Shown here piece by piece: positions 1 to 51,994 of a stretch of DNA of 51,994 bases (position 1 is the stretch's first letter; each line of letters starts with the position of its first letter). The DNA is from a virus (lineage: Duplodnaviria > Heunggongvirae > Uroviricota > Caudoviricetes): the IMG/VR virus record IMGVR_UViG_3300045988_149344; one strand, written 5' to 3'. The translations under genes were made by a program, and so were the position numbers. Below the pieces are notes generated by a model. It was not told the DNA's origin. It ran no database searches and worked only from the letters and a program-made list of their open reading frames with translations.

Positions 1-720
1 TTTCGGTGTGGCGGCCAGCACTTCAGACGTGCTGTTAGTGGCACTACTGAGCTGAACTAATCCCTTTTGCGTTGTGCTTGCATCCTGCGCCGTATACTTG
101 CTTTTCGCCAGATCGTAGGCTTTTTTAACTGCCAGCGAACTCGCAGCAACATCACTTCTGGTACTGGTTACAGAGTCTGAAATATCAATGCCGATCGTGC
201 GGTTGATACGCTCGGATGTATCAATCATCTCTTGAGTAATGGTAGATACGCCAGCAGGGATATTCACCGTACAAACCAGCAGTTCCCCATCACCTAACTG
301 ATATGAATCGGTATAGGTTCTGGCAACAAATTCAGCTGCATGAATATGTGACGCGGTATTCACCTGATAGGTATCTTCTCCAAGAAGGTATCTTCCCTTC
401 AGCACAATTGCATATTTCTTGCCTGCGTTAAGTGCAAGAGAGATATCCTTACGATGCTGAATAGTTACCTGGTAGAATTCACCAATATCCACTGACGCCG
501 CGCCAGCGGTTTTATCTCCATCCACTGAGGTGATTAACAGGTTCATTCCACCGCCAGGCTTAGGCAAGAAACCAGCATAAAATCCCGGGTCAACAATTCC
601 CCTGAATTTTCGGTTTAGAGCGGCTGACAGATATGGTTCGTGGTATTGCACATCAGCCACCAGAGCCAACGACTCGGGTGATGGGTAAGTAACCGATGTA
701 ACAACTGTAACGTCATTCAT
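1..720 (-). CDS. Tail fibre protein, N-terminal part; the gene continues beyond position 1
   Basis: Open minus-strand frame from ATG 720-718 to position 1, preceded by a stop codon and an AAGGA ribosome binding site. My translation of 1-120 gives AYDLAKSKYTAQDASTTQKGLVQLSSATNSTSEVLAATPK, the conserved motif of P2 gpH / lambda Stf type tail fibres. Confidence 0.6.
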   Translation of the reverse strand, partial: MNDVTVVTSVTYPSPESLALVADVQYHEPYLSAALNRKFRGIVDPGFYAGFLPKPGGGMNLLITSVDGDKTAGAASVDIGEFYQVTIQHRKDISLALNAGKKYAIVLKGRYLLGEDTYQVNTASHIHAAEFVARTYTDSYQLGDGELLVCTVNIPAGVSTITQEMIDTSERINRTIGIDISDSVTSTRSDVAASSLAVKKAYDLAKSKYTAQDASTTQKGLVQLSSATNSTSEVLAATPK

Positions 721-731
721 CAAGCATATCC

Positions 732-1166
732 TTATGCTGTAGTCGAGTTTATGGCCATAACTGCGGTATATGTTTTGCCCACATACAGCGAGTCTTCCTG
801 GACACAAATAATGGCGATTGGCTTATTCTCGTTATCCAGAACAACCAGAGTGTTGAATGGGTAGTTTTTCCCTTCCTGCAACTGACTTTGATCAAGGTCC
901 ATTCGGACAGTAATTATCCCGCCTGAGTAGGTTGGGACGAGGTTGATGGTGCAAAATTGACTGGTCAGTTCTGCCAGATCGAAAGCCTTTGGCAGTTCTC
1001 CAATCTCATAAGTGCCATCTCCTTTCTTAGTAACCAGTGAACTGGTACCGAAAACGGCCTTGCTGATTAAAAATCGAGAGCCTTTGTTAATGGACGATTC
1101 AGCGCGCCGCTGATAGTAATAGTCCAACAACTGACTCTTATAGAGGTTTGTTGAGACGTCAGACAT
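732..1166 (-). CDS. Hypothetical tail-fibre operon protein (144 aa)
   Basis: ORF immediately upstream of the tail fibre gene on the same strand; no recognisable motif; position resembles the small gene that precedes the fibre gene in P1-like phages. Confidence 0.35.
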   Translation of the reverse strand: MSDVSTNLYKSQLLDYYYQRRAESSINKGSRFLISKAVFGTSSLVTKKGDGTYEIGELPKAFDLAELTSQFCTINLVPTYSGGIITVRMDLDQSQLQEGKNYPFNTLVVLDNENKPIAIICVQEDSLYVGKTYTAVMAINSTTA

Positions 1167-1244
1167 GATTTTCCCTAATCAATGTTGTGAAGCCTCATTG
1201 TAAGATAAGTAACTTGTCACCCCGCCCTGCGGACGGGGTGATTG

Positions 1245-2084
1245 TCACGCATCGCTATCCAACAGCAAATCATCTGCGCGGGTGCGATCAAACGTAGGCG
1301 TTGCTTTCACAATAGTGCCGCCCGGCGTTGCAGTGATCGGGGCGTTAATCGACGTAACTTCAGTAAGCGAAGTTGTATCCGAAGTTTCAAACCAGCAGAA
1401 TGCTTTTTCGGTATCAGAAATCTCATTCAAAGTGATCATGTCGGCCTGTTCATTTACAACAACCGACAAATAGAGCGTAAGCCCATCAAACACTATATGC
1501 AGTGGCAGTAGAGGCTTTACGAACTGATTAAACTTTCTGAGAATTTCTTCTGTAATTGCGGACTGATCTATCGTTCCAGTAATACCCATTGTCCGGGCCA
1601 GGTCGTTTATGGGAATACTGATCATTCCTCTGGAAGTCAGAAACATCTCGCCGAATGTGCCGCCGGTGGTTTCCAGTGTGCTTTCTGGAATCAGGACCGT
1701 GCCATAGGGATGACGTTCAAAGTCCACCGGAGCATATATTGGATCCCATAAAACCGATATACCGTTAAATTCGCGATAAATTGTCTGGTTTATAGGGCGT
1801 TCAGTACCCTTAAAATGGATCTCATCAAACCGCTGTTGTAACAACATCGGAACGGAAGATGAATTCGACGTTCTGATAGTAAAAAACTGGCCAAGTTCAT
1901 TTGTCCTAGTCTCCAGATCCTCCTTGCTCATGGAGAAAATAGACTTCCGGTTGGTAATTCGCTCCAACCATGGGTCAACAAAGGTGTCCATCATTGACTG
2001 AACCAAATCAGCCAATGATTTATAAAGTAATGACTTTTGCTTAGCTGATGTAAGCCGGTTATTAAACCAGGAACGCTGCATCAC
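1245..2084 (-). CDS. Putative baseplate protein (279 aa)
   Basis: Stop/start overlap with the upstream 477-aa gene; sits between a J-like gene and the fibre genes, as the gpI-position gene does in P2-type baseplate operons. Confidence 0.35.
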   Translation of the reverse strand: MMQRSWFNNRLTSAKQKSLLYKSLADLVQSMMDTFVDPWLERITNRKSIFSMSKEDLETRTNELGQFFTIRTSNSSSVPMLLQQRFDEIHFKGTERPINQTIYREFNGISVLWDPIYAPVDFERHPYGTVLIPESTLETTGGTFGEMFLTSRGMISIPINDLARTMGITGTIDQSAITEEILRKFNQFVKPLLPLHIVFDGLTLYLSVVVNEQADMITLNEISDTEKAFCWFETSDTTSLTEVTSINAPITATPGGTIVKATPTFDRTRADDLLLDSDA

Positions 2085-9905: not shown

Positions 9906-10940
9906 TCAAGCCTTAAGAGGCTTTGTGTATGTTCGTGTAATCCATCCAGTAATAAACTCGTCCCCTGATTTAACCTGCACGAAAAGCCATTGGCGATCTT
10001 TTTTATCTAAAACAGCCACTATAGTATTTTTGCCAATGCATTCAATCACCTCACTATTTATAGAAGGACTGACGTGTAATCTTACGTTCTCACCAGTTAT
10101 AAAACGAAAACCATTGAGATCTTCCCAACTAATTTCTTTGTTTTCTTTAATTAATTGTTGTTTTGATATTGGTTTATCCTCAAACAGAGATATAAAATAT
10201 GATTCTGCCTTGTGTATTCCCAGCAAGGTTTTCTCTTTTCCGTAATCAATAAAAGCACCAAACACAACTTGAGAAAATATAACCATTAGTAACCATTGCA
10301 GTGGATAAGGAAGCTCTTTAAATGAATCAACAAACTTTGAGCTAGGTTTATTTAATCCTTTATTTTGAACATTACTTTTGGTGTGTGATGTTTCAGTAGC
10401 ACCTTCAGCATAAGCCTGCGCAATAGATGAAATCCCCTGCTCTATTATTTGATGTAATGAAGCATTTCTTGTTCTAGCATAGTGATCTAGTACTTTCTTT
10501 ATGTCTTGGCTTACATCTATTTTATAACTTGCACTTTGTTGTAATTCTTTAAGTATCGCTTGCATGTTATTTAAACCAGCTTGCTTATTAAGCACCTCAA
10601 GCTGTTTTCGTAATGGCATAGCTATTTCGGCCTGTTTCCTTAGCATTTGAATATATCTATTTGCATCATGAGGGAAAAGAGCCTGAGTCTGTTTCTGTAA
10701 AATCGCGATATGTTCACGATACTTGCTGCCTATTCCAGCCAAGTTCGGTATACTAGCCAATTGTTTTCGAAGAGAGTTACTAATTACAGCTTGTCTATTC
10801 AATCTTGGCATATTTTGAAAAGAATGTTTTTCTATTCCTAATTGTTTTTGCAAGATCGCTACGTGATCTTTGTATGATGGAATGAGCACTGACTGTTTAT
10901 ACAGCAACTTCAACTCATTAGAATTAGTAATTTTTGTCAT
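9906..10940 (-). CDS. Membrane-anchored protein with N-terminal coiled-coil repeats, one TM helix and a C-terminal SH3b-like domain (344 aa)
   Basis: AT-rich ORF; repeated ILQKQ/LRKQ segments; hydrophobic stretch LQWLLMVIFSQVVFGAFI; C-terminal RFITGENVRLHV...GWI resembles bacterial SH3 domains. Confidence 0.45.
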   Translation of the reverse strand: MTKITNSNELKLLYKQSVLIPSYKDHVAILQKQLGIEKHSFQNMPRLNRQAVISNSLRKQLASIPNLAGIGSKYREHIAILQKQTQALFPHDANRYIQMLRKQAEIAMPLRKQLEVLNKQAGLNNMQAILKELQQSASYKIDVSQDIKKVLDHYARTRNASLHQIIEQGISSIAQAYAEGATETSHTKSNVQNKGLNKPSSKFVDSFKELPYPLQWLLMVIFSQVVFGAFIDYGKEKTLLGIHKAESYFISLFEDKPISKQQLIKENKEISWEDLNGFRFITGENVRLHVSPSINSEVIECIGKNTIVAVLDKKDRQWLFVQVKSGDEFITGWITRTYTKPLKA

Positions 10941-12027: not shown

Positions 12028-12099
12028 ATTTTTTTAGCTTCATATGCTACATTAACTTGCTTGCGTGCTAATGCATTTTCGGTTTATCCTAAACAGGCA

Positions 12100-12176
12100 T
12101 CTTAGTAACACGGATGCCGGGATTGGAACCCCGGATAATGCAAAAGGCGACATAGACGCCAAAAGCGTCTTTTTTT
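12100..12176 (+). ncRNA. Candidate c4-like antisense RNA of immI (boundaries uncertain)
   Basis: About 75-nt structured segment upstream of icd: hairpin CCGGGATTGGAACCCCGG, then hairpin AGACGC-CAAAA-GCGTCT plus T6 (12154-12176). The loop sequence GATTGGAACC recurs at 12305-12314, and GTTCCAACC, complementary to GGTTGGAAC and one mismatch from the loop complement, lies at 12276-12284. Confidence 0.3.
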
Positions 12177-12361
12177 GTGTCATGCCATCGCACAACCATA
12201 CGTAGCACATAGCTCCGAGATCAATGGTAGTGCTGGCTGGGCTGCCGAAAGGCAGGCCGGTTCCCTTTTGCGCCGGTAGTTCCAACCCAGTCAGTGCTAC
12301 CGCCATTGAGATTGGAACCTCACGCGGTAGCTCCTTAAATTAGCAAAAGGAGGCTGCCATT

Positions 12362-16125: not shown

Positions 16126-16307
16126 TACAATCGCTGCGGGTGCTTGAGGCTATCTGCTTCAGGCATTACCCGACAAGCAGATAGAAGAAAGCCCCAGATA
16201 ACATTACGCGTCCTGCAAGACGCTTAACATTAATCTGAGGCCATATCTATGCTTAGCATACGTAGATTAGCCCTCTCCCCTTTTTAGGAGCAAGGAATTT
16301 TTTACTG

Positions 16308-16904
16308 CTATGCCGCCTTTCCAATTATGGATTCAGCGACCAGAACAACCCCATGCTTACTTCGATCTGGGTGTTCACTCCATATCTCGGATTCAGGAAT
16401 ACTTACCCCGTCATAGCAAACACGTTCGCCGTCAAACGGGTAATACTGAGCGGCATCGGTGTCGAGGATAAACACTTTTAGCTCGGAAGAGCGACGGGCG
16501 ATGTGTTGCCAAAGAGCTTTTCCACCTTCGTATTGCTCATTATCACTGAGCAAAACAACACCAGCTTTTGAGGCTACGGTTTCGTAAACAAAAGTAGCTA
16601 AACCGACATCCCGGACGGTTCCATCAACCACGATACCTTCAATCTGGGCAACATCGCTATCCTCCCAGAACTTCCTTACCAGTACGCCTTCAAGCTGCGG
16701 GCGACGTTGAAGTTCAAGAGTAGCGACAACCTTATGGCGCATATCACCATCGATAACAGAAGGCGCAGCCTCTATTACAGCTGCAAATGGGGTTTTGGAA
16801 TCCCATATAACCTGGTAAAGCACACCCTGGATGGTAACTCCGTCCAGGATCGAAAATCGACGAGCGACAGTACCCGGGGAGTACGACATTGGAATCACAG
16901 CCAT
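16308..16904 (-). CDS. Hypothetical protein (198 aa)
   Basis: Start set to the internal ATG at 16904, which has an AGGGGG ribosome binding site 9 nt upstream; preceded by an intrinsic terminator and an AT-rich promoter region. Confidence 0.4.
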   Translation of the reverse strand: MAVIPMSYSPGTVARRFSILDGVTIQGVLYQVIWDSKTPFAAVIEAAPSVIDGDMRHKVVATLELQRRPQLEGVLVRKFWEDSDVAQIEGIVVDGTVRDVGLATFVYETVASKAGVVLLSDNEQYEGGKALWQHIARRSSELKVFILDTDAAQYYPFDGERVCYDGVSIPESEIWSEHPDRSKHGVVLVAESIIGKAA

Positions 16905-22395: not shown

Positions 22396-22532
22396 TTTAC
22401 TCTTCCTTAAACACAAGGCACTTGTGTGAATCCCTTTTCGGAAGAGATTTTATTGAAAGTCACTTGTTGACTTTCTCGTGACAAGCAATTTTTTTATTTT
22501 TTTTCGGGAGTAGGGGAGGAAGGTAAAATCCA

Positions 22533-22621: not shown

Positions 22622-23623
22622 TTAAGGCTTCGGCTTTTTATCGAGGCTCTTTCTAAGGATATGCCCAATCATCCTGTCGAGTTCTTCCTGTAGCTCTTTT
22701 GAAAGTCGATTAAACTCATAAGAAAATGCACGGCCTTTCACGCGCTTCCTTGCAAAGCGATCCTTGTCCTCAAATTTCCATAATTCAGTAACTACGGACT
22801 TATCTTTAGAACCTTTATCCGTGAGTAGTGAGGCTTCCTTTGTTATCAAGCGCAGGATTTTATTTTTAACTTCATCTTCGGCCATTTCTTCAATGGATAA
22901 GATGTCGTTTATTTCCGGGGATATGTTTTGAATAAGCTGATCAAACTCTAAATTCTTGTTCCCCATTTCGTCGCCAACAGCACAAAGCGTTTTGTAGTCC
23001 GAAAAGGTTAATTCCGACTGCACAGGGAAAAGGGCGACTAATTCTTCCGGAGCACTCGCTGCCTGGAGAGCACGCGTGACTTTCGCCTGAGACAGCCCTT
23101 CCTTGGCTGCAATATCCTTCTGACTCATCCCATCATTTTTCATTCGCATCAAACGCAGACCTATTTCTCGAATGCTGTGCTGCAATGCTGTCTGAACGTC
23201 TTTCGCTAAATTTTGCGCTTCCTGAACGCTGATCTCCTGGTCCGTGACTAAAACCCGCAACCCTACGTTCTCTAAGATGGCAGAAGCTCGACGCCGGGAA
23301 CCATCCAAAATTTCAATTTTCCCTGTAGCCCGTCTAACACCTATTGCAGGGTAAAATTGCTGATGCTTAATAGTGCTTCGGATACTTTTTAATGATTTTG
23401 GCGTAAGAGATGCCTGGTCACGCCCGTTGTTATGCTGATCAACAAAGGTATCGCTTTCTACCTGGTTCGGAGGTATTACCTCTTCAATAAATGTGGCCTG
23501 GCGACCAGTTGATAACTTGAATACCTGCTCGACTCGATCGCCAGAGGCTGAAGAACTATCAAATCCGCTTAATATTGAAGGATTAAGGGTTCGCCCAATT
23601 GTTGGTCTGTTTTTCTTTGACAT
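22622..23623 (-). CDS. parB: ParB partition protein (333 aa)
   Basis: ParB-type protein downstream of parA and upstream of parS; length matches P1 ParB. Confidence 0.9.
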   Translation of the reverse strand: MSKKNRPTIGRTLNPSILSGFDSSSASGDRVEQVFKLSTGRQATFIEEVIPPNQVESDTFVDQHNNGRDQASLTPKSLKSIRSTIKHQQFYPAIGVRRATGKIEILDGSRRRASAILENVGLRVLVTDQEISVQEAQNLAKDVQTALQHSIREIGLRLMRMKNDGMSQKDIAAKEGLSQAKVTRALQAASAPEELVALFPVQSELTFSDYKTLCAVGDEMGNKNLEFDQLIQNISPEINDILSIEEMAEDEVKNKILRLITKEASLLTDKGSKDKSVVTELWKFEDKDRFARKRVKGRAFSYEFNRLSKELQEELDRMIGHILRKSLDKKPKP

Positions 23624-48429: not shown

Positions 48430-48936
48430 TTGAGTATTTTCAATAAACATGCACACCAGGAACGTCCGTATATCGTCATAGTCGATATTGATGGAACAAT
48501 ATCAGAGGCAACTGAAGACAGACTGCATTTGCTTCCGCCACCAGGTAAAGGTGCATTAACAAAGGACTGGAACGAGTTTAATCTCGCCTGTGACACCGAT
48601 ACTCCCATCACTCCGGTTATTGATATGGTGCGCCAGTTATTTAACGTTTACACGGTCTGGTTTGTAACCGGGCGCTGTGAGATCGCAAGGGATAAAACAC
48701 GAGCCTGGCTGCGGAAGTACGTAACAAACGGGGCTGAGCCTTTGCTATCTATGCGTCCTGCCACCGATGACAGAAATGACGGTCCAGCAAAGATTGATCT
48801 CCTGAAGAAAATTGGTCTAAGTAAAATTGCGTTCGCGCTGGAAGATAAGATTGAAGTGGCGCGTGTTTTCAGGAGTCACGGCGTACTTACGTTAATGGTC
48901 AGGGAGTATGAAAACGCGCTTCTCCACCAACAATAA
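48430..48936 (+). CDS. HAD-superfamily phosphatase-like protein (168 aa), TTG start
   Basis: Motif I VIVDIDGTI; GAGGAGGG ribosome binding site 4-5 nt before TTG at 48430. Confidence 0.5.
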   Translation: MSIFNKHAHQERPYIVIVDIDGTISEATEDRLHLLPPPGKGALTKDWNEFNLACDTDTPITPVIDMVRQLFNVYTVWFVTGRCEIARDKTRAWLRKYVTNGAEPLLSMRPATDDRNDGPAKIDLLKKIGLSKIAFALEDKIEVARVFRSHGVLTLMVREYENALLHQQ

Positions 48937-48952
48937 TTGCTCTAATAAATAT
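48936..48952 (+). promoter_or_regulatory. C1 operator (16/17) overlapping the stop of the HAD gene
   Basis: ATTGCTCTAATAAATAT. Confidence 0.6.
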
Positions 48953-49034
48953 TGATTTTTAAAACAGAGAAAGTGAAAATAAAAACATGCCGCAAGGCGC
49001 GGCATGTATCCAATCAATCACAGGAGCTGAAAAT

Positions 49035-49121
49035 ATGAACACGGCATTCAAAATCATTATGGCCGCGATCTATTTCTGGCTGTTCTCTATCACTTTTGGC
49101 GGCATCGTCGCGCATGGGTAA
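49035..49121 (+). CDS. 28-aa hydrophobic peptide (MNTAFKIIMAAIYFWLFSITFGGIVAHG), not in ORF track
   Basis: AGGAG ribosome binding site 7 nt upstream of the ATG; single predicted TM helix; lies between a C1 operator and the next gene. Confidence 0.3.
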   Translation: MNTAFKIIMAAIYFWLFSITFGGIVAHG

Positions 49122-49130
49122 GGGGGATGC

Positions 49131-49859
49131 ATGAAAGGCGAAGTGAAAGAGCGCGGCATGATTTTCAACGATGAGATGGTCCGAGCCATCCTCGAAGGAA
49201 GGAAAACGCAGACGCGGCGGATAATGAAAAATCAGCCTGCGGAAGTTGGTCCAGAAGCACCAGTGATGGTTAGGGAAATTGGTGCAGGTTTTCAGTGGTA
49301 CGGGGCTGATGGTGTAAGCAGTGTTTTCAATTGCCCCTTTGGTATCGTCGGCGATCGAATTTGGGTTCGTGAAACATGGGCGATATTAGGCAATGAAGAT
49401 GGTTGCAGTGTGGACTGGAACGACAACCTTTGTCGTGGCGATGAGAAGAACGCAGCAAGGATTTATCGGGCCAGTTGTGAGCAAAAGCCTGGTGATTACG
49501 GTTTATGGTCGATACCCGATGATGCCGACTGGAAACCTCACACTGTGAATGAAAAGTTTGATGGTGGGTGGCGTCCATCAATTCACATGCCGCGATGGGC
49601 ATCACGCATCCTGTTGGAAATTACCAACGTGCGCGTTGAGCGGTTGAACGATATCAGCGAATGCGATGCAAGGGATGAGGGCGTTCCGCCTGCTGGAAGT
49701 TTGCTTCCTGATCACCCGGGAACATTCCTTACTCCCAAGGGGGATTTCGCAATGGCCAAGGTTGCGTTCCAGCGTCTGTGGGAATCCATCTATGGTGAAG
49801 AAAGCTGGAACGCTAATCCCTGGGTGTGGGTAATCGAGTTTAAGCGCATTCAGGAATAA
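49131..49859 (+). CDS. Conserved prophage protein, possibly ASCH-like (242 aa)
   Basis: N-terminal MIFNDEMVRAILEGRKTQTRR is a motif I associate with ASCH-type prophage proteins; weak call. Confidence 0.4.
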   Translation: MKGEVKERGMIFNDEMVRAILEGRKTQTRRIMKNQPAEVGPEAPVMVREIGAGFQWYGADGVSSVFNCPFGIVGDRIWVRETWAILGNEDGCSVDWNDNLCRGDEKNAARIYRASCEQKPGDYGLWSIPDDADWKPHTVNEKFDGGWRPSIHMPRWASRILLEITNVRVERLNDISECDARDEGVPPAGSLLPDHPGTFLTPKGDFAMAKVAFQRLWESIYGEESWNANPWVWVIEFKRIQE

Positions 49860-49942
49860 ACCGTGAGTATGCATCAAATCGTCAGTTTTTCAGGTGGACG
49901 AGCATCGGCCTGTCTCGTTCATCTGTTCGAATAGGTAGTGGC

Positions 49943-50146
49943 ATGACAATCGTAAAAACCCATACCGGCACCGTGATCACCAAAGACGGTCCGCAGGTAA
50001 AAAAACTGCACCAAACAGAGCGGATGTGGGTCGTCGGCAAAAACGAGTTTTACCACAAAGAAACTGGACGCCGCCATTTTGCAGAAAATACGCGCCGCCG
50101 ACTGCTGTTAGACACCATCAAGCCTATCGAGGTGAAGCATGTTTAA
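49943..50146 (+). CDS. Small hypothetical protein (67 aa)
   Basis: ORF overlapping the start of the next gene by 8 nt. Confidence 0.3.
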   Translation: MTIVKTHTGTVITKDGPQVKKLHQTERMWVVGKNEFYHKETGRRHFAENTRRRLLLDTIKPIEVKHV

Positions 50147-50378
50147 ACAGAACGAAAAGGCTATCGCTCAAATTGCTGATTATATCCCGCGTGCGTGCCG
50201 GGGTATGCAGTTGCAGGAAGCCAAAGCGCGCCTGGAGAAAAAAATTGCGCTCTATATTGATGACGGCTGTGATGCTGCTGTTCTTAACGCAGCGTTCGCG
50301 CCAGCTCTTAACAGTCATACGCGGGAGTCTTTTTTTTCGCGCATCGCAGCGCAGATCCGTAAAGGAGGCAACCAGTGA
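50139..50378 (+). CDS. Small hypothetical protein (79 aa)
   Basis: Ends ...QIRKGGNQ; its stop overlaps the GTG start of the next gene (GTGA). Confidence 0.35.
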   Translation: MFKQNEKAIAQIADYIPRACRGMQLQEAKARLEKKIALYIDDGCDAAVLNAAFAPALNSHTRESFFSRIAAQIRKGGNQ

Positions 50379-51100
50379 GCGAAATTAACTATAAAGAACT
50401 GCGCGAGGCGGCGAAACAGGCAACGCAAGATGAATGGGTAGCATATATTTTGCCGGGTCATAACGGCATTTATCCTGCGCGCACGTCTGAGGGTAGGCAT
50501 TGCGGATACTTTATTGACTGGCCTAGCGTCTGTCAGGGGGGGGAGAGCATCAACATGAGCATCAGAACCTACGCAGTGAATTGCAATGACGCATGGCTAA
50601 ACACCGAAGGTGATGACATCTCCGGCTCATACGTTAAGTACAAAGACCATCAGGAAGTGGTTGCCGCTCTTGAGGCCAAGTGCGCGGCGCTGGCGGCGGA
50701 GAATGAGCTGGCTCGTAAGGCAGTTCAGGCATTCTGCGATGTTGTTGGCGACAACACCGAGGTTATCGCTGAGGAGGTTGGGCGAGATGGCGTTCTGGTT
50801 ATTTTGGGGGCCATGAAGGCAACAGGAAATATTTCAGCCACCGATGCTTTTCTGGCTGAAATTCGTGCGGAAGCACGCAACGAGGGGATTAACTATACCG
50901 CCAGCCGTCTTGCTGCTGCGTTCAATCACGGATTTATCAATAAATCTTTGCGTGAAGTTTTCGACGTTACACGCATGATTTTGTCAGCGAAAGAAGAGTT
51001 GGCTAATGAACCGCATCCGATTGATGGCCTGTCCGGTGAATATGCGGAGAAATCCCTTGAAGAATGGGCGGAACAGATTCGCAAAGGAGGCAAGCAGTGA
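50375..51100 (+). CDS. Ead/Ea22-like family protein (241 aa), GTG start
   Basis: N-terminal NYKELREAAKQATQDEW resembles the (I/D)YQALREAAEKAT..W start of lambdoid Ea22-like proteins; AAGGAGG ribosome binding site. Confidence 0.5.
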   Translation: MSEINYKELREAAKQATQDEWVAYILPGHNGIYPARTSEGRHCGYFIDWPSVCQGGESINMSIRTYAVNCNDAWLNTEGDDISGSYVKYKDHQEVVAALEAKCAALAAENELARKAVQAFCDVVGDNTEVIAEEVGRDGVLVILGAMKATGNISATDAFLAEIRAEARNEGINYTASRLAAAFNHGFINKSLREVFDVTRMILSAKEELANEPHPIDGLSGEYAEKSLEEWAEQIRKGGKQ

Positions 51101-51396
51101 GTGTATATCTTATTGATAAACGTCGACGTGGGCAACAAATACCACCTGTAGGAATTCCGAATCACACATGGTTTTGCGTACTTGATATCGATGGTATGGA
51201 TGCGTTGGTTGACACTCGTCATTACTGCGATACCGCAACAGCTACTCCGGCGAAAGCAAAGAAAATGGCTGCTCTGATAGAAAACTGGACTCCACCTGAT
51301 GGTTGGTGCAATGGGAATGATCGAGATTGGCATGAAAAAATGAAGGGCTATATCTGCGATTTCTTACGTAAATGCAACGGATTCAGGGTGATGTGA
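51097..51396 (+). CDS. Small Cys-containing protein (99 aa), GTG start
   Basis: GTG at 51097 with an AAGGAGG ribosome binding site 7 nt upstream, overlapping the previous stop; the track ATG at 51064 lies inside the upstream gene. Confidence 0.4.
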   Translation: MSVYLIDKRRRGQQIPPVGIPNHTWFCVLDIDGMDALVDTRHYCDTATATPAKAKKMAALIENWTPPDGWCNGNDRDWHEKMKGYICDFLRKCNGFRVM

Positions 51397-51397
51397 C

Positions 51398-51817
51398 ATG
51401 AACAAGATTGACTATCAGGCACTGCGTGAGGCGGCAGAGAAGGCAACGTGGGGAGACTGGGACTCATATAAACCACACCGTGGCGCACGTGGTTATGAGG
51501 TCCGACTAAGTAGTCAGGCCATTGCGCAACACGTTCTGAAAAACAACGCTGAATTTATTGCTGCCTTTAATCCAAAGATTGCTTTGGCACTACTGGATGA
51601 ACGGGAAAGGAACCAGCAATACATCAAATCCCGCGACCAGGAGAACGAGGATATTGCACTAACGGTAGGGAAGTTGCGCGTTGAGCTGGAAGCAGCAAAA
51701 TCAAAACTCAACGAGCAGCGTGAGTATTACGAAGGTGTTATCTCTGATGGGAGTAAGCGCATAGCAGAGTTAGAAAGTGGTTCTCAGGCACAAAAGTTAG
51801 TTGAAGCAATCAGGTGA
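51398..51817 (+). CDS. Ead/Ea22-like family protein, C-terminally truncated by IS1 (139 aa)
   Basis: N-terminus MNKIDYQALREAAEKATWGDW; the stop codon TGA (51815-51817) lies inside the IS1 terminal inverted repeat. Confidence 0.5.
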   Translation: MNKIDYQALREAAEKATWGDWDSYKPHRGARGYEVRLSSQAIAQHVLKNNAEFIAAFNPKIALALLDERERNQQYIKSRDQENEDIALTVGKLRVELEAAKSKLNEQREYYEGVISDGSKRIAELESGSQAQKLVEAIR

Positions 51818-51994
51818 TGCTGCCAACTTACTGATTTAGTGTATGATGGTGTTTTTGAGGTGCTCCAGTGGCTTCTGTTTCTATCAGCTGTCCCTCCTGT
51901 TCAGCTACTGACGGGGTGGTGCGTAACGGCAAAAGCACCGCCGGACATCAGCGCTATCTCTGCTCTCACTGCCGTAAAACATGGCAACTGCAGT
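51813..51994 (+). mobile_element. IS1 insertion sequence, left end (element continues beyond window)
   Basis: Exact IS1 terminal sequence GGTGATGCTGCCAACTTACTGATTTAGTGTATGATGGTGTTTTTGAGGTGCTCCAGTGGCTTCTG... Confidence 0.9.
51868..51994 (+). CDS. insA: IS1 InsA, N-terminal part (partial at window edge)
   Basis: GTG start; translation [42 protein letters not shown]. Confidence 0.85.

Follow-up and report, generated by a model that had tools for sequence, protein, structure and literature searches.

An ead/Ea22-like accessory gene of 185 codons has probably been interrupted at codon 139 by transposition of an IS1 copy. The gene is located in the variable stretch from pap to lxr in an IncY P1-like (Punavirus) phage-plasmid of a human gut Enterobacterium. 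The DNA analysed is a stretch of 51,994 nucleotides (hereafter, the window) that ends inside the element. The gene is broken between positions 51812 and 51813, its intact ancestral allele is present in relatives of the phage-plasmid, its product is truncated at a stop codon formed by IS1 nt 3-5, and insA of the element has the same orientation as the interrupted gene. This is a private IS1 insertion allele, real but ordinary, in that element, gene, and kind of event have all been described before.

The junction and the truncated product

The following features describe the right end of the window:

51398..51817, plus strand: truncated Ead/Ea22-like ORF, 139 aa, consisting of 138 native codons, a hybrid Arg codon (A from the gene, GG from IS1), and an IS1-derived TGA
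51398..51812, plus strand: native portion preceding IS1, corresponding to nt 1-415 of the intact allele (WP_033550033.1; 558 nt), 99.9% identity to relatives
51804..51812, plus strand: AAGCAATCA, 9 bp of which a second copy is predicted beyond the other end of IS1, provided that the transposition was simple (from the usual 9-bp duplication, as in P1)
51813..51994, plus strand: IS1 left end, nt 1-182 of 768, running to the window end, 182/182 identical to the IS1 of P1
51813..51835, plus strand: IS1 left terminal inverted repeat (IRL), 23 nt, GGTGATGCTGCCAACTTACTGAT, exact match
51815..51817, plus strand: TGA stop of the truncated ORF, IS1 nt 3-5, inside GGTGATG
51820..51847, plus strand: promoter-like site CTGCCA-16-TATGAT inside the IRL, from a consensus scan only
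51868..51994, plus strand: 5′ part of insA from its GTG start at 51868, the 42 codons giving the same protein sequence as P1 InsA

The 139-aa ORF matches the Pfam family Ead_Ea22 (PF13935) with an E-value of 1.3e-37 and 129.9 bits against a gathering cutoff of 27, and the match spans residues 3-126 of the ORF and positions 2-139 of the 139 in the model. An earlier note on this DNA had proposed that IS1 is inserted into an Ea22-like gene, and this is borne out by the PF13935 match, by the presence of GGTGATGCTGCCAACTTACTGAT at 51813, and by the intact 185-aa alleles, which align only up to 51812. The repeat occurs once in the window, with 0 occurrences expected by chance. The intact allele reads ...GCA ATC ATT GTT GCG ATA GAA...; in the window, only the A of the ATT codon remains and GG of IS1 fills the other two positions, so that Ile139 becomes Arg and is followed by the stop. 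The note was equally right in ascribing this stop to the IS1 repeat. Its statement that the native C-terminus has been replaced needs correction, as the C-terminus is cut off: 47 residues, about the last quarter of the protein, are gone and only the split codon is changed, while the Ead_Ea22 domain is whole.

The IS1-donated stop is not remarkable. The three frames entering the left end of IS1 close at nt 3-5 (TGA), 20-22 (TGA), and 25-27 (TAG); since all of them close within 27 nt, such a stop is inevitable, and any gene hit in the same orientation ends within nine codons. The insertion shares with known IS1 insertions (IS1A/IS1R-type, 768 bp) in E. coli, plasmids, and phages the same left repeat, the same insA start, and the same first 182 nt, as well as a relatively AT-rich target (GC content of 40% upstream and 37% downstream vs 47% in the whole window) and the premature ending of the interrupted ORF at stop codons supplied by the IS; nothing in it is different in kind. 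The bases 51813..51994 are likewise identical to several other IS1 copies. The insA frame begins at IS1 nt 56, behind the promoter-like site of the IRL, which, going by established knowledge of IS1, would be the element's own insA promoter.

The position of the break within the protein is best seen against the family background. Two relatives of 226 and 234 aa, which cluster with the truncated protein at 90% identity, have the first ~128 residues in common with it when aligned, their C-termini being wholly different. Judged from such alignments, the Ead/Ea22 family is modular, with C-termini that differ after about residue 128. The insertion point lies 10 codons beyond this mosaic boundary; therefore, the conserved Ead_Ea22 domain is kept and the lineage-specific 47-residue C-terminal module is lost. 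The same modularity could suggest that the 139-aa form is a natural short allele, with IS1 merely adjoining it. This is hardly credible, as it is refuted by the alignment to the intact alleles: the DNA remains 99.9% identical to the 185-codon allele through the 10 codons past the boundary, the break falls in the middle of a codon exactly at the IS1 terminus, and the stop is inside IS1.

Ea22 of phage lambda, a pro-lysogenic protein of the exo-xis region, belongs to the same family, PF13935, the likeness being distant, at the family level, and through the Pfam domain only. Lambda Ea22 favours lysogeny and is of modular build, with a distinct, variable C-terminal domain (PMC7093339, PMC10834534). 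The Ea22-like proteins of the window gave no match to defence-system models, and no relatives of the Ea22-like protein among solved structures were detectable by sequence.

A second Ead/Ea22-like gene (50375..51100, 241 aa, PF13935 E 1.3e-16) lies two genes upstream of the truncated one and is 31% identical to it at the protein level, the two being separated by a DUF7739 gene (51097..51396). This Ead/Ea22-DUF7739 part of the backbone bears a block of lambdoid exo-xis-type genes, for which Sf6, Stx phages, and further lambdoid phages also gave matches of 93-98%, in patches that amount to 23-41% of the query.

The intact allele and the phage-plasmid backbone

With the region 50375..51994 as query, megablast gave matches of 99.9% to about 25 plasmids and a single phage; they extend over query positions 1..1438 (window 50375..51812), and every one of them stops at 51812, the base before IS1. 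In those plasmids and the phage, the gene is intact (558 nt, 185 aa, WP_033550033.1) and annotated as an ead/Ea22-like family protein. The plasmids shown to bear it are ~91-187 kb in size, and pCREC-629_2, the one whose typing was read, has an IncY replicon; the phage is vB_EcoM-813R1 (ON470617), a Punavirus. Exact look-up in a protein collection gave 844 contigs for the intact protein, as against 4 for the truncated one, which indicates that the intact form is ancestral. A 30-aa ORF that might be predicted from the gene remnant (MDSKEC...KGE) was absent from the protein collection in an exact look-up.

The four contigs with the truncated protein come from JGI/IMG and ENA, the longest being 53,466 bp. 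One of them, ENA contig k127_19590 (ERZ920061 / ERR1018237, human gut metagenome; 52,561 bp), carries the same junction; it is 100% identical to window positions 41398..51938 (10.5 kb) and stops 126 nt into IS1, that is, k-1 for k = 127. All four contigs may derive from one sample, so that the independent confirmation they provide is limited. Exact searches for the left junction with a 32-mer or a 160-nt query gave no match in PLSDB, 5,426 complete E. coli genomes, IMG/VR, JGI metagenome contigs, or GTDB genomes, and the insertion site with IS1 was absent from INPHARED phage records.

Given that the ends of metagenome contigs are error-prone and that the junction is missing from all isolate genome collections searched, it is conceivable that an IS1 fragment of another replicon was joined to the end of the phage-plasmid contig during assembly. 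Such a chimera is very improbable: the join lies exactly at IS1 nt 1, where transposition places it, a chimera would need a shared k-mer, whereas only 2 bases are common with the flank of P1's IS1, and the separate ENA assembly has the same junction. Under the preferred reading, a genuine IS1 insertion, the contig end has a simple cause. Contigs that end inside a multi-copy repeat are typical of short-read assemblers; IS1 is such a repeat, which these assemblers could not cross, and the window contig would end there for this reason.

Colinearity of the window with the IncY phage-plasmid pCREC-629_2 (NZ_CP024817.1) extends from reference position 57540 across the origin to 13418, at 97.2-99.9% identity in long colinear blocks that cover most of the 52 kb, with a few short diverged or substituted stretches. 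The annotation of NZ_CP024817.1 includes repA, parAB, dam, and dnaB. By its sequence, the window is part of a P1-like (Punavirus) IncY phage-plasmid. Both pCREC-629_2 and vB_EcoM-813R1 resemble the window in having two Ea22-like genes and the DUF7739 gene and differ from it in having the intact 185-aa gene and a site without IS1; inspection of the pCREC-629_2 annotation revealed no annotated IS1 transposase.

The interrupted gene follows pmgS and pap-like genes and precedes hot, humD, and phd-doc, within a run of small genes whose stops and starts overlap or abut. The pap-lxr segment is a known variable region (PMC6906374, PMC9603915). Among the P1 pap-lxr genes, those assayed by CRISPRi (from pmgT to lxr, except upfM, which had no target site) scored as non-essential (PMC10695390).

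Several further observations concern the backbone. The left end of the window (reference position 57540) lies inside the tail-fibre gene, beside the region of the cin recombinase and the invertible segment, and the ENA contig extends 623 bp further left. Both contig ends thus coincide with sequences that short reads do not resolve, the invertible segment on the left and IS1 on the right. A C4 antisense immunity RNA (12220..12307) lies next to an isrK-like RNA (12097..12175), and tRNA-Asn, tRNA-Thr, and a CAT-anticodon tRNA are present within 33422..35651; together with the C4 RNA, they serve as a backbone marker. The C4 and isrK-like RNAs and the three tRNAs presumably represent the usual P1 set. 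An Rfam sok antitoxin RNA (hok/sok-type, 89.7 bits) is found at 16138..16312, a point of divergence between the window and the reference plasmid. The window lacks any equivalent of reference positions 73030..74782, which hold a ParA-family gene and a DUF3892 gene. Window segment 9805..11021 has no match in the reference phage-plasmid and stands in place of the DUF4760 gene of the latter; it contains a 343-aa minus-strand ORF (9906..10940) whose only match, weak and just under the Pfam cutoff, is to SH3_3 at the C-terminus, and is probably another known variable region. Finally, LmuB (SMC-like) defence models (E 1e-4), as well as a TPR nucleoprotein coiled-coil model, match a predicted 420-aa protein (47095..48357) weakly, most likely owing to coiled-coil composition and not to homology.

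Relation to the resident IS1 of P1

The earlier note had linked the junction by ancestry to the IS1 copy of P1, said to be flanked by the two halves of an interrupted gene. The comparison speaks against both parts of this view. In P1, IS1 (NC_005856, 22626..23393) lies between isaA (which ends at 22531, 94 nt before) and isaB (which starts at 23527, 133 nt after), is not annotated inside any ORF, and is flanked by its own 9-bp duplication, TGCCCTCTG. It belongs to the variable region RD-2, whereas the insertion in the window belongs to the pap-lxr region, RD-5 / region 8 (PMC6906374, PMC9603915). The likeness between the two copies consists in the 182/182 identity over the visible part, in the P1-type genome, and in their both being located in variable, dispensable regions. 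The ancestral P1 locus (isaA-IS1-isaB) was considered as the origin of the site and rejected, its flanks and TGCCCTCTG being unlike the window, and an alignment of the P1 IS1 region with the window is limited to IS1 plus 2 chance bases.

Since close relatives of the backbone have the site empty, the insertion is not ancestral; on this comparison, it is independent of the P1 copy and probably recent.

The canonical IS1 right repeat is ...AAGTTGGAG... The right inverted repeat of the P1 copy reads ...AAGTTTGAGTCATTACC (NC_005856; 2127..2139 of the excerpt examined), and in the GenBank record of P1 this repeat is annotated as a mutant with one base substitution, the element being flagged as possibly transposition-defective. 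The right end of the P1 copy, ...GAGTCATTACC, differs from GGCAGCATCACC, the reverse complement of the left repeat.

Beyond the window: the expected right junction and the consequences of the insertion

The target duplication of IS1 is usually 9 bp. From established IS1 biology, the whole element should measure 768 bp, with its other end 768 bp downstream, and the far end would be followed by a 9-bp repeat of AAGCAATCA and then by the last 143 nt of the gene. The right junction would accordingly read as the IS1 right end ...AAGTTGGAGTCATTACC, then AAGCAATCA, then TTGTTGCGATAGAAAACG. In other lengths, a simple insertion predicts CAAAATCGGTGGAGCTGCATGACAAAGTCATCGGGCATTATCTGAACATAAAACACTATCAATAAGTTKGAGTCATTACC-AAGCAATCA-TTGTTGCGATAGAAAACGAACAGG, or AAGCAATCA and TTGTTGCGATAG after the right end of IS1, and TTGTTGCGATAGAAAACGAAC is expected within 14 nt after GAGTCATTACC. 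Searches for this predicted junction gave no match in IMG/VR, nor did a 169-nt version of it in complete E. coli genomes or PLSDB.

A simple insertion has to be weighed against a reading in which the IS1 end is the edge of something larger, such as an IS1-flanked composite transposon (with Tn9-like cargo), an IS1-mediated cointegrate between the phage-plasmid and a different replicon, or a deletion or inversion associated with IS1, so that the remainder of the gene does not directly follow one IS1. Neither the window nor the identical ENA contig reaches beyond IS1, and the 3′ remainder of the gene was not found elsewhere within the 52-kb window. It is also known that IS elements reshape P1-like phage-plasmids and that resistance cargo is acquired in their variable regions (PMC6906374, PMC9603915). 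Nevertheless, this reading is unlikely: rearrangements are far rarer than simple insertions, the window corresponds to reference positions 57540 to 13418 only, so that the remainder is expected on the missing 44 kb anyway, and no positive evidence for cargo was obtained. Still less probable is the specific case in which IS1 delimits, on one side, a larger acquisition or rearrangement brought about by IS1, be it a Tn9-like composite transposon or a cointegrate with a replicon or the chromosome. If such an acquisition were true, a transducible P1-like element in the human gut would be gaining new genes through the pap-lxr variable region.

If a simple insertion is accepted, its expected effects follow from the arrangement of the genes. 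The native stop of the interrupted gene is located 1 nt before the start of the next gene, which suggests that the insertion would be polar on the tightly packed downstream genes, among them an 87-aa gene and a DUF551 gene, and transcription of the phage operon would run into IS1, as established IS1 biology predicts. The end of IS1 visible in the window, the IRL, points back into the truncated gene and away from the downstream genes; thus, any activation of neighbours would come from the right end of IS1, beyond the window. Fusion promoters can take their -35 element from IS1 ends (table 1 of PMC9330008). The insertion may be tolerated because the region is dispensable for lytic growth in P1.

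For annotation, the 139-aa protein is to be regarded as a truncation artefact of a 185-aa gene and not as a variant of the Ead/Ea22 family, and the same insertion explains the position of the contig end. For the biology of the P1-like phage-plasmids, it matters little, providing one more example of IS1 acting on these elements in the human gut, in a region that has already been described as variable and dispensable.
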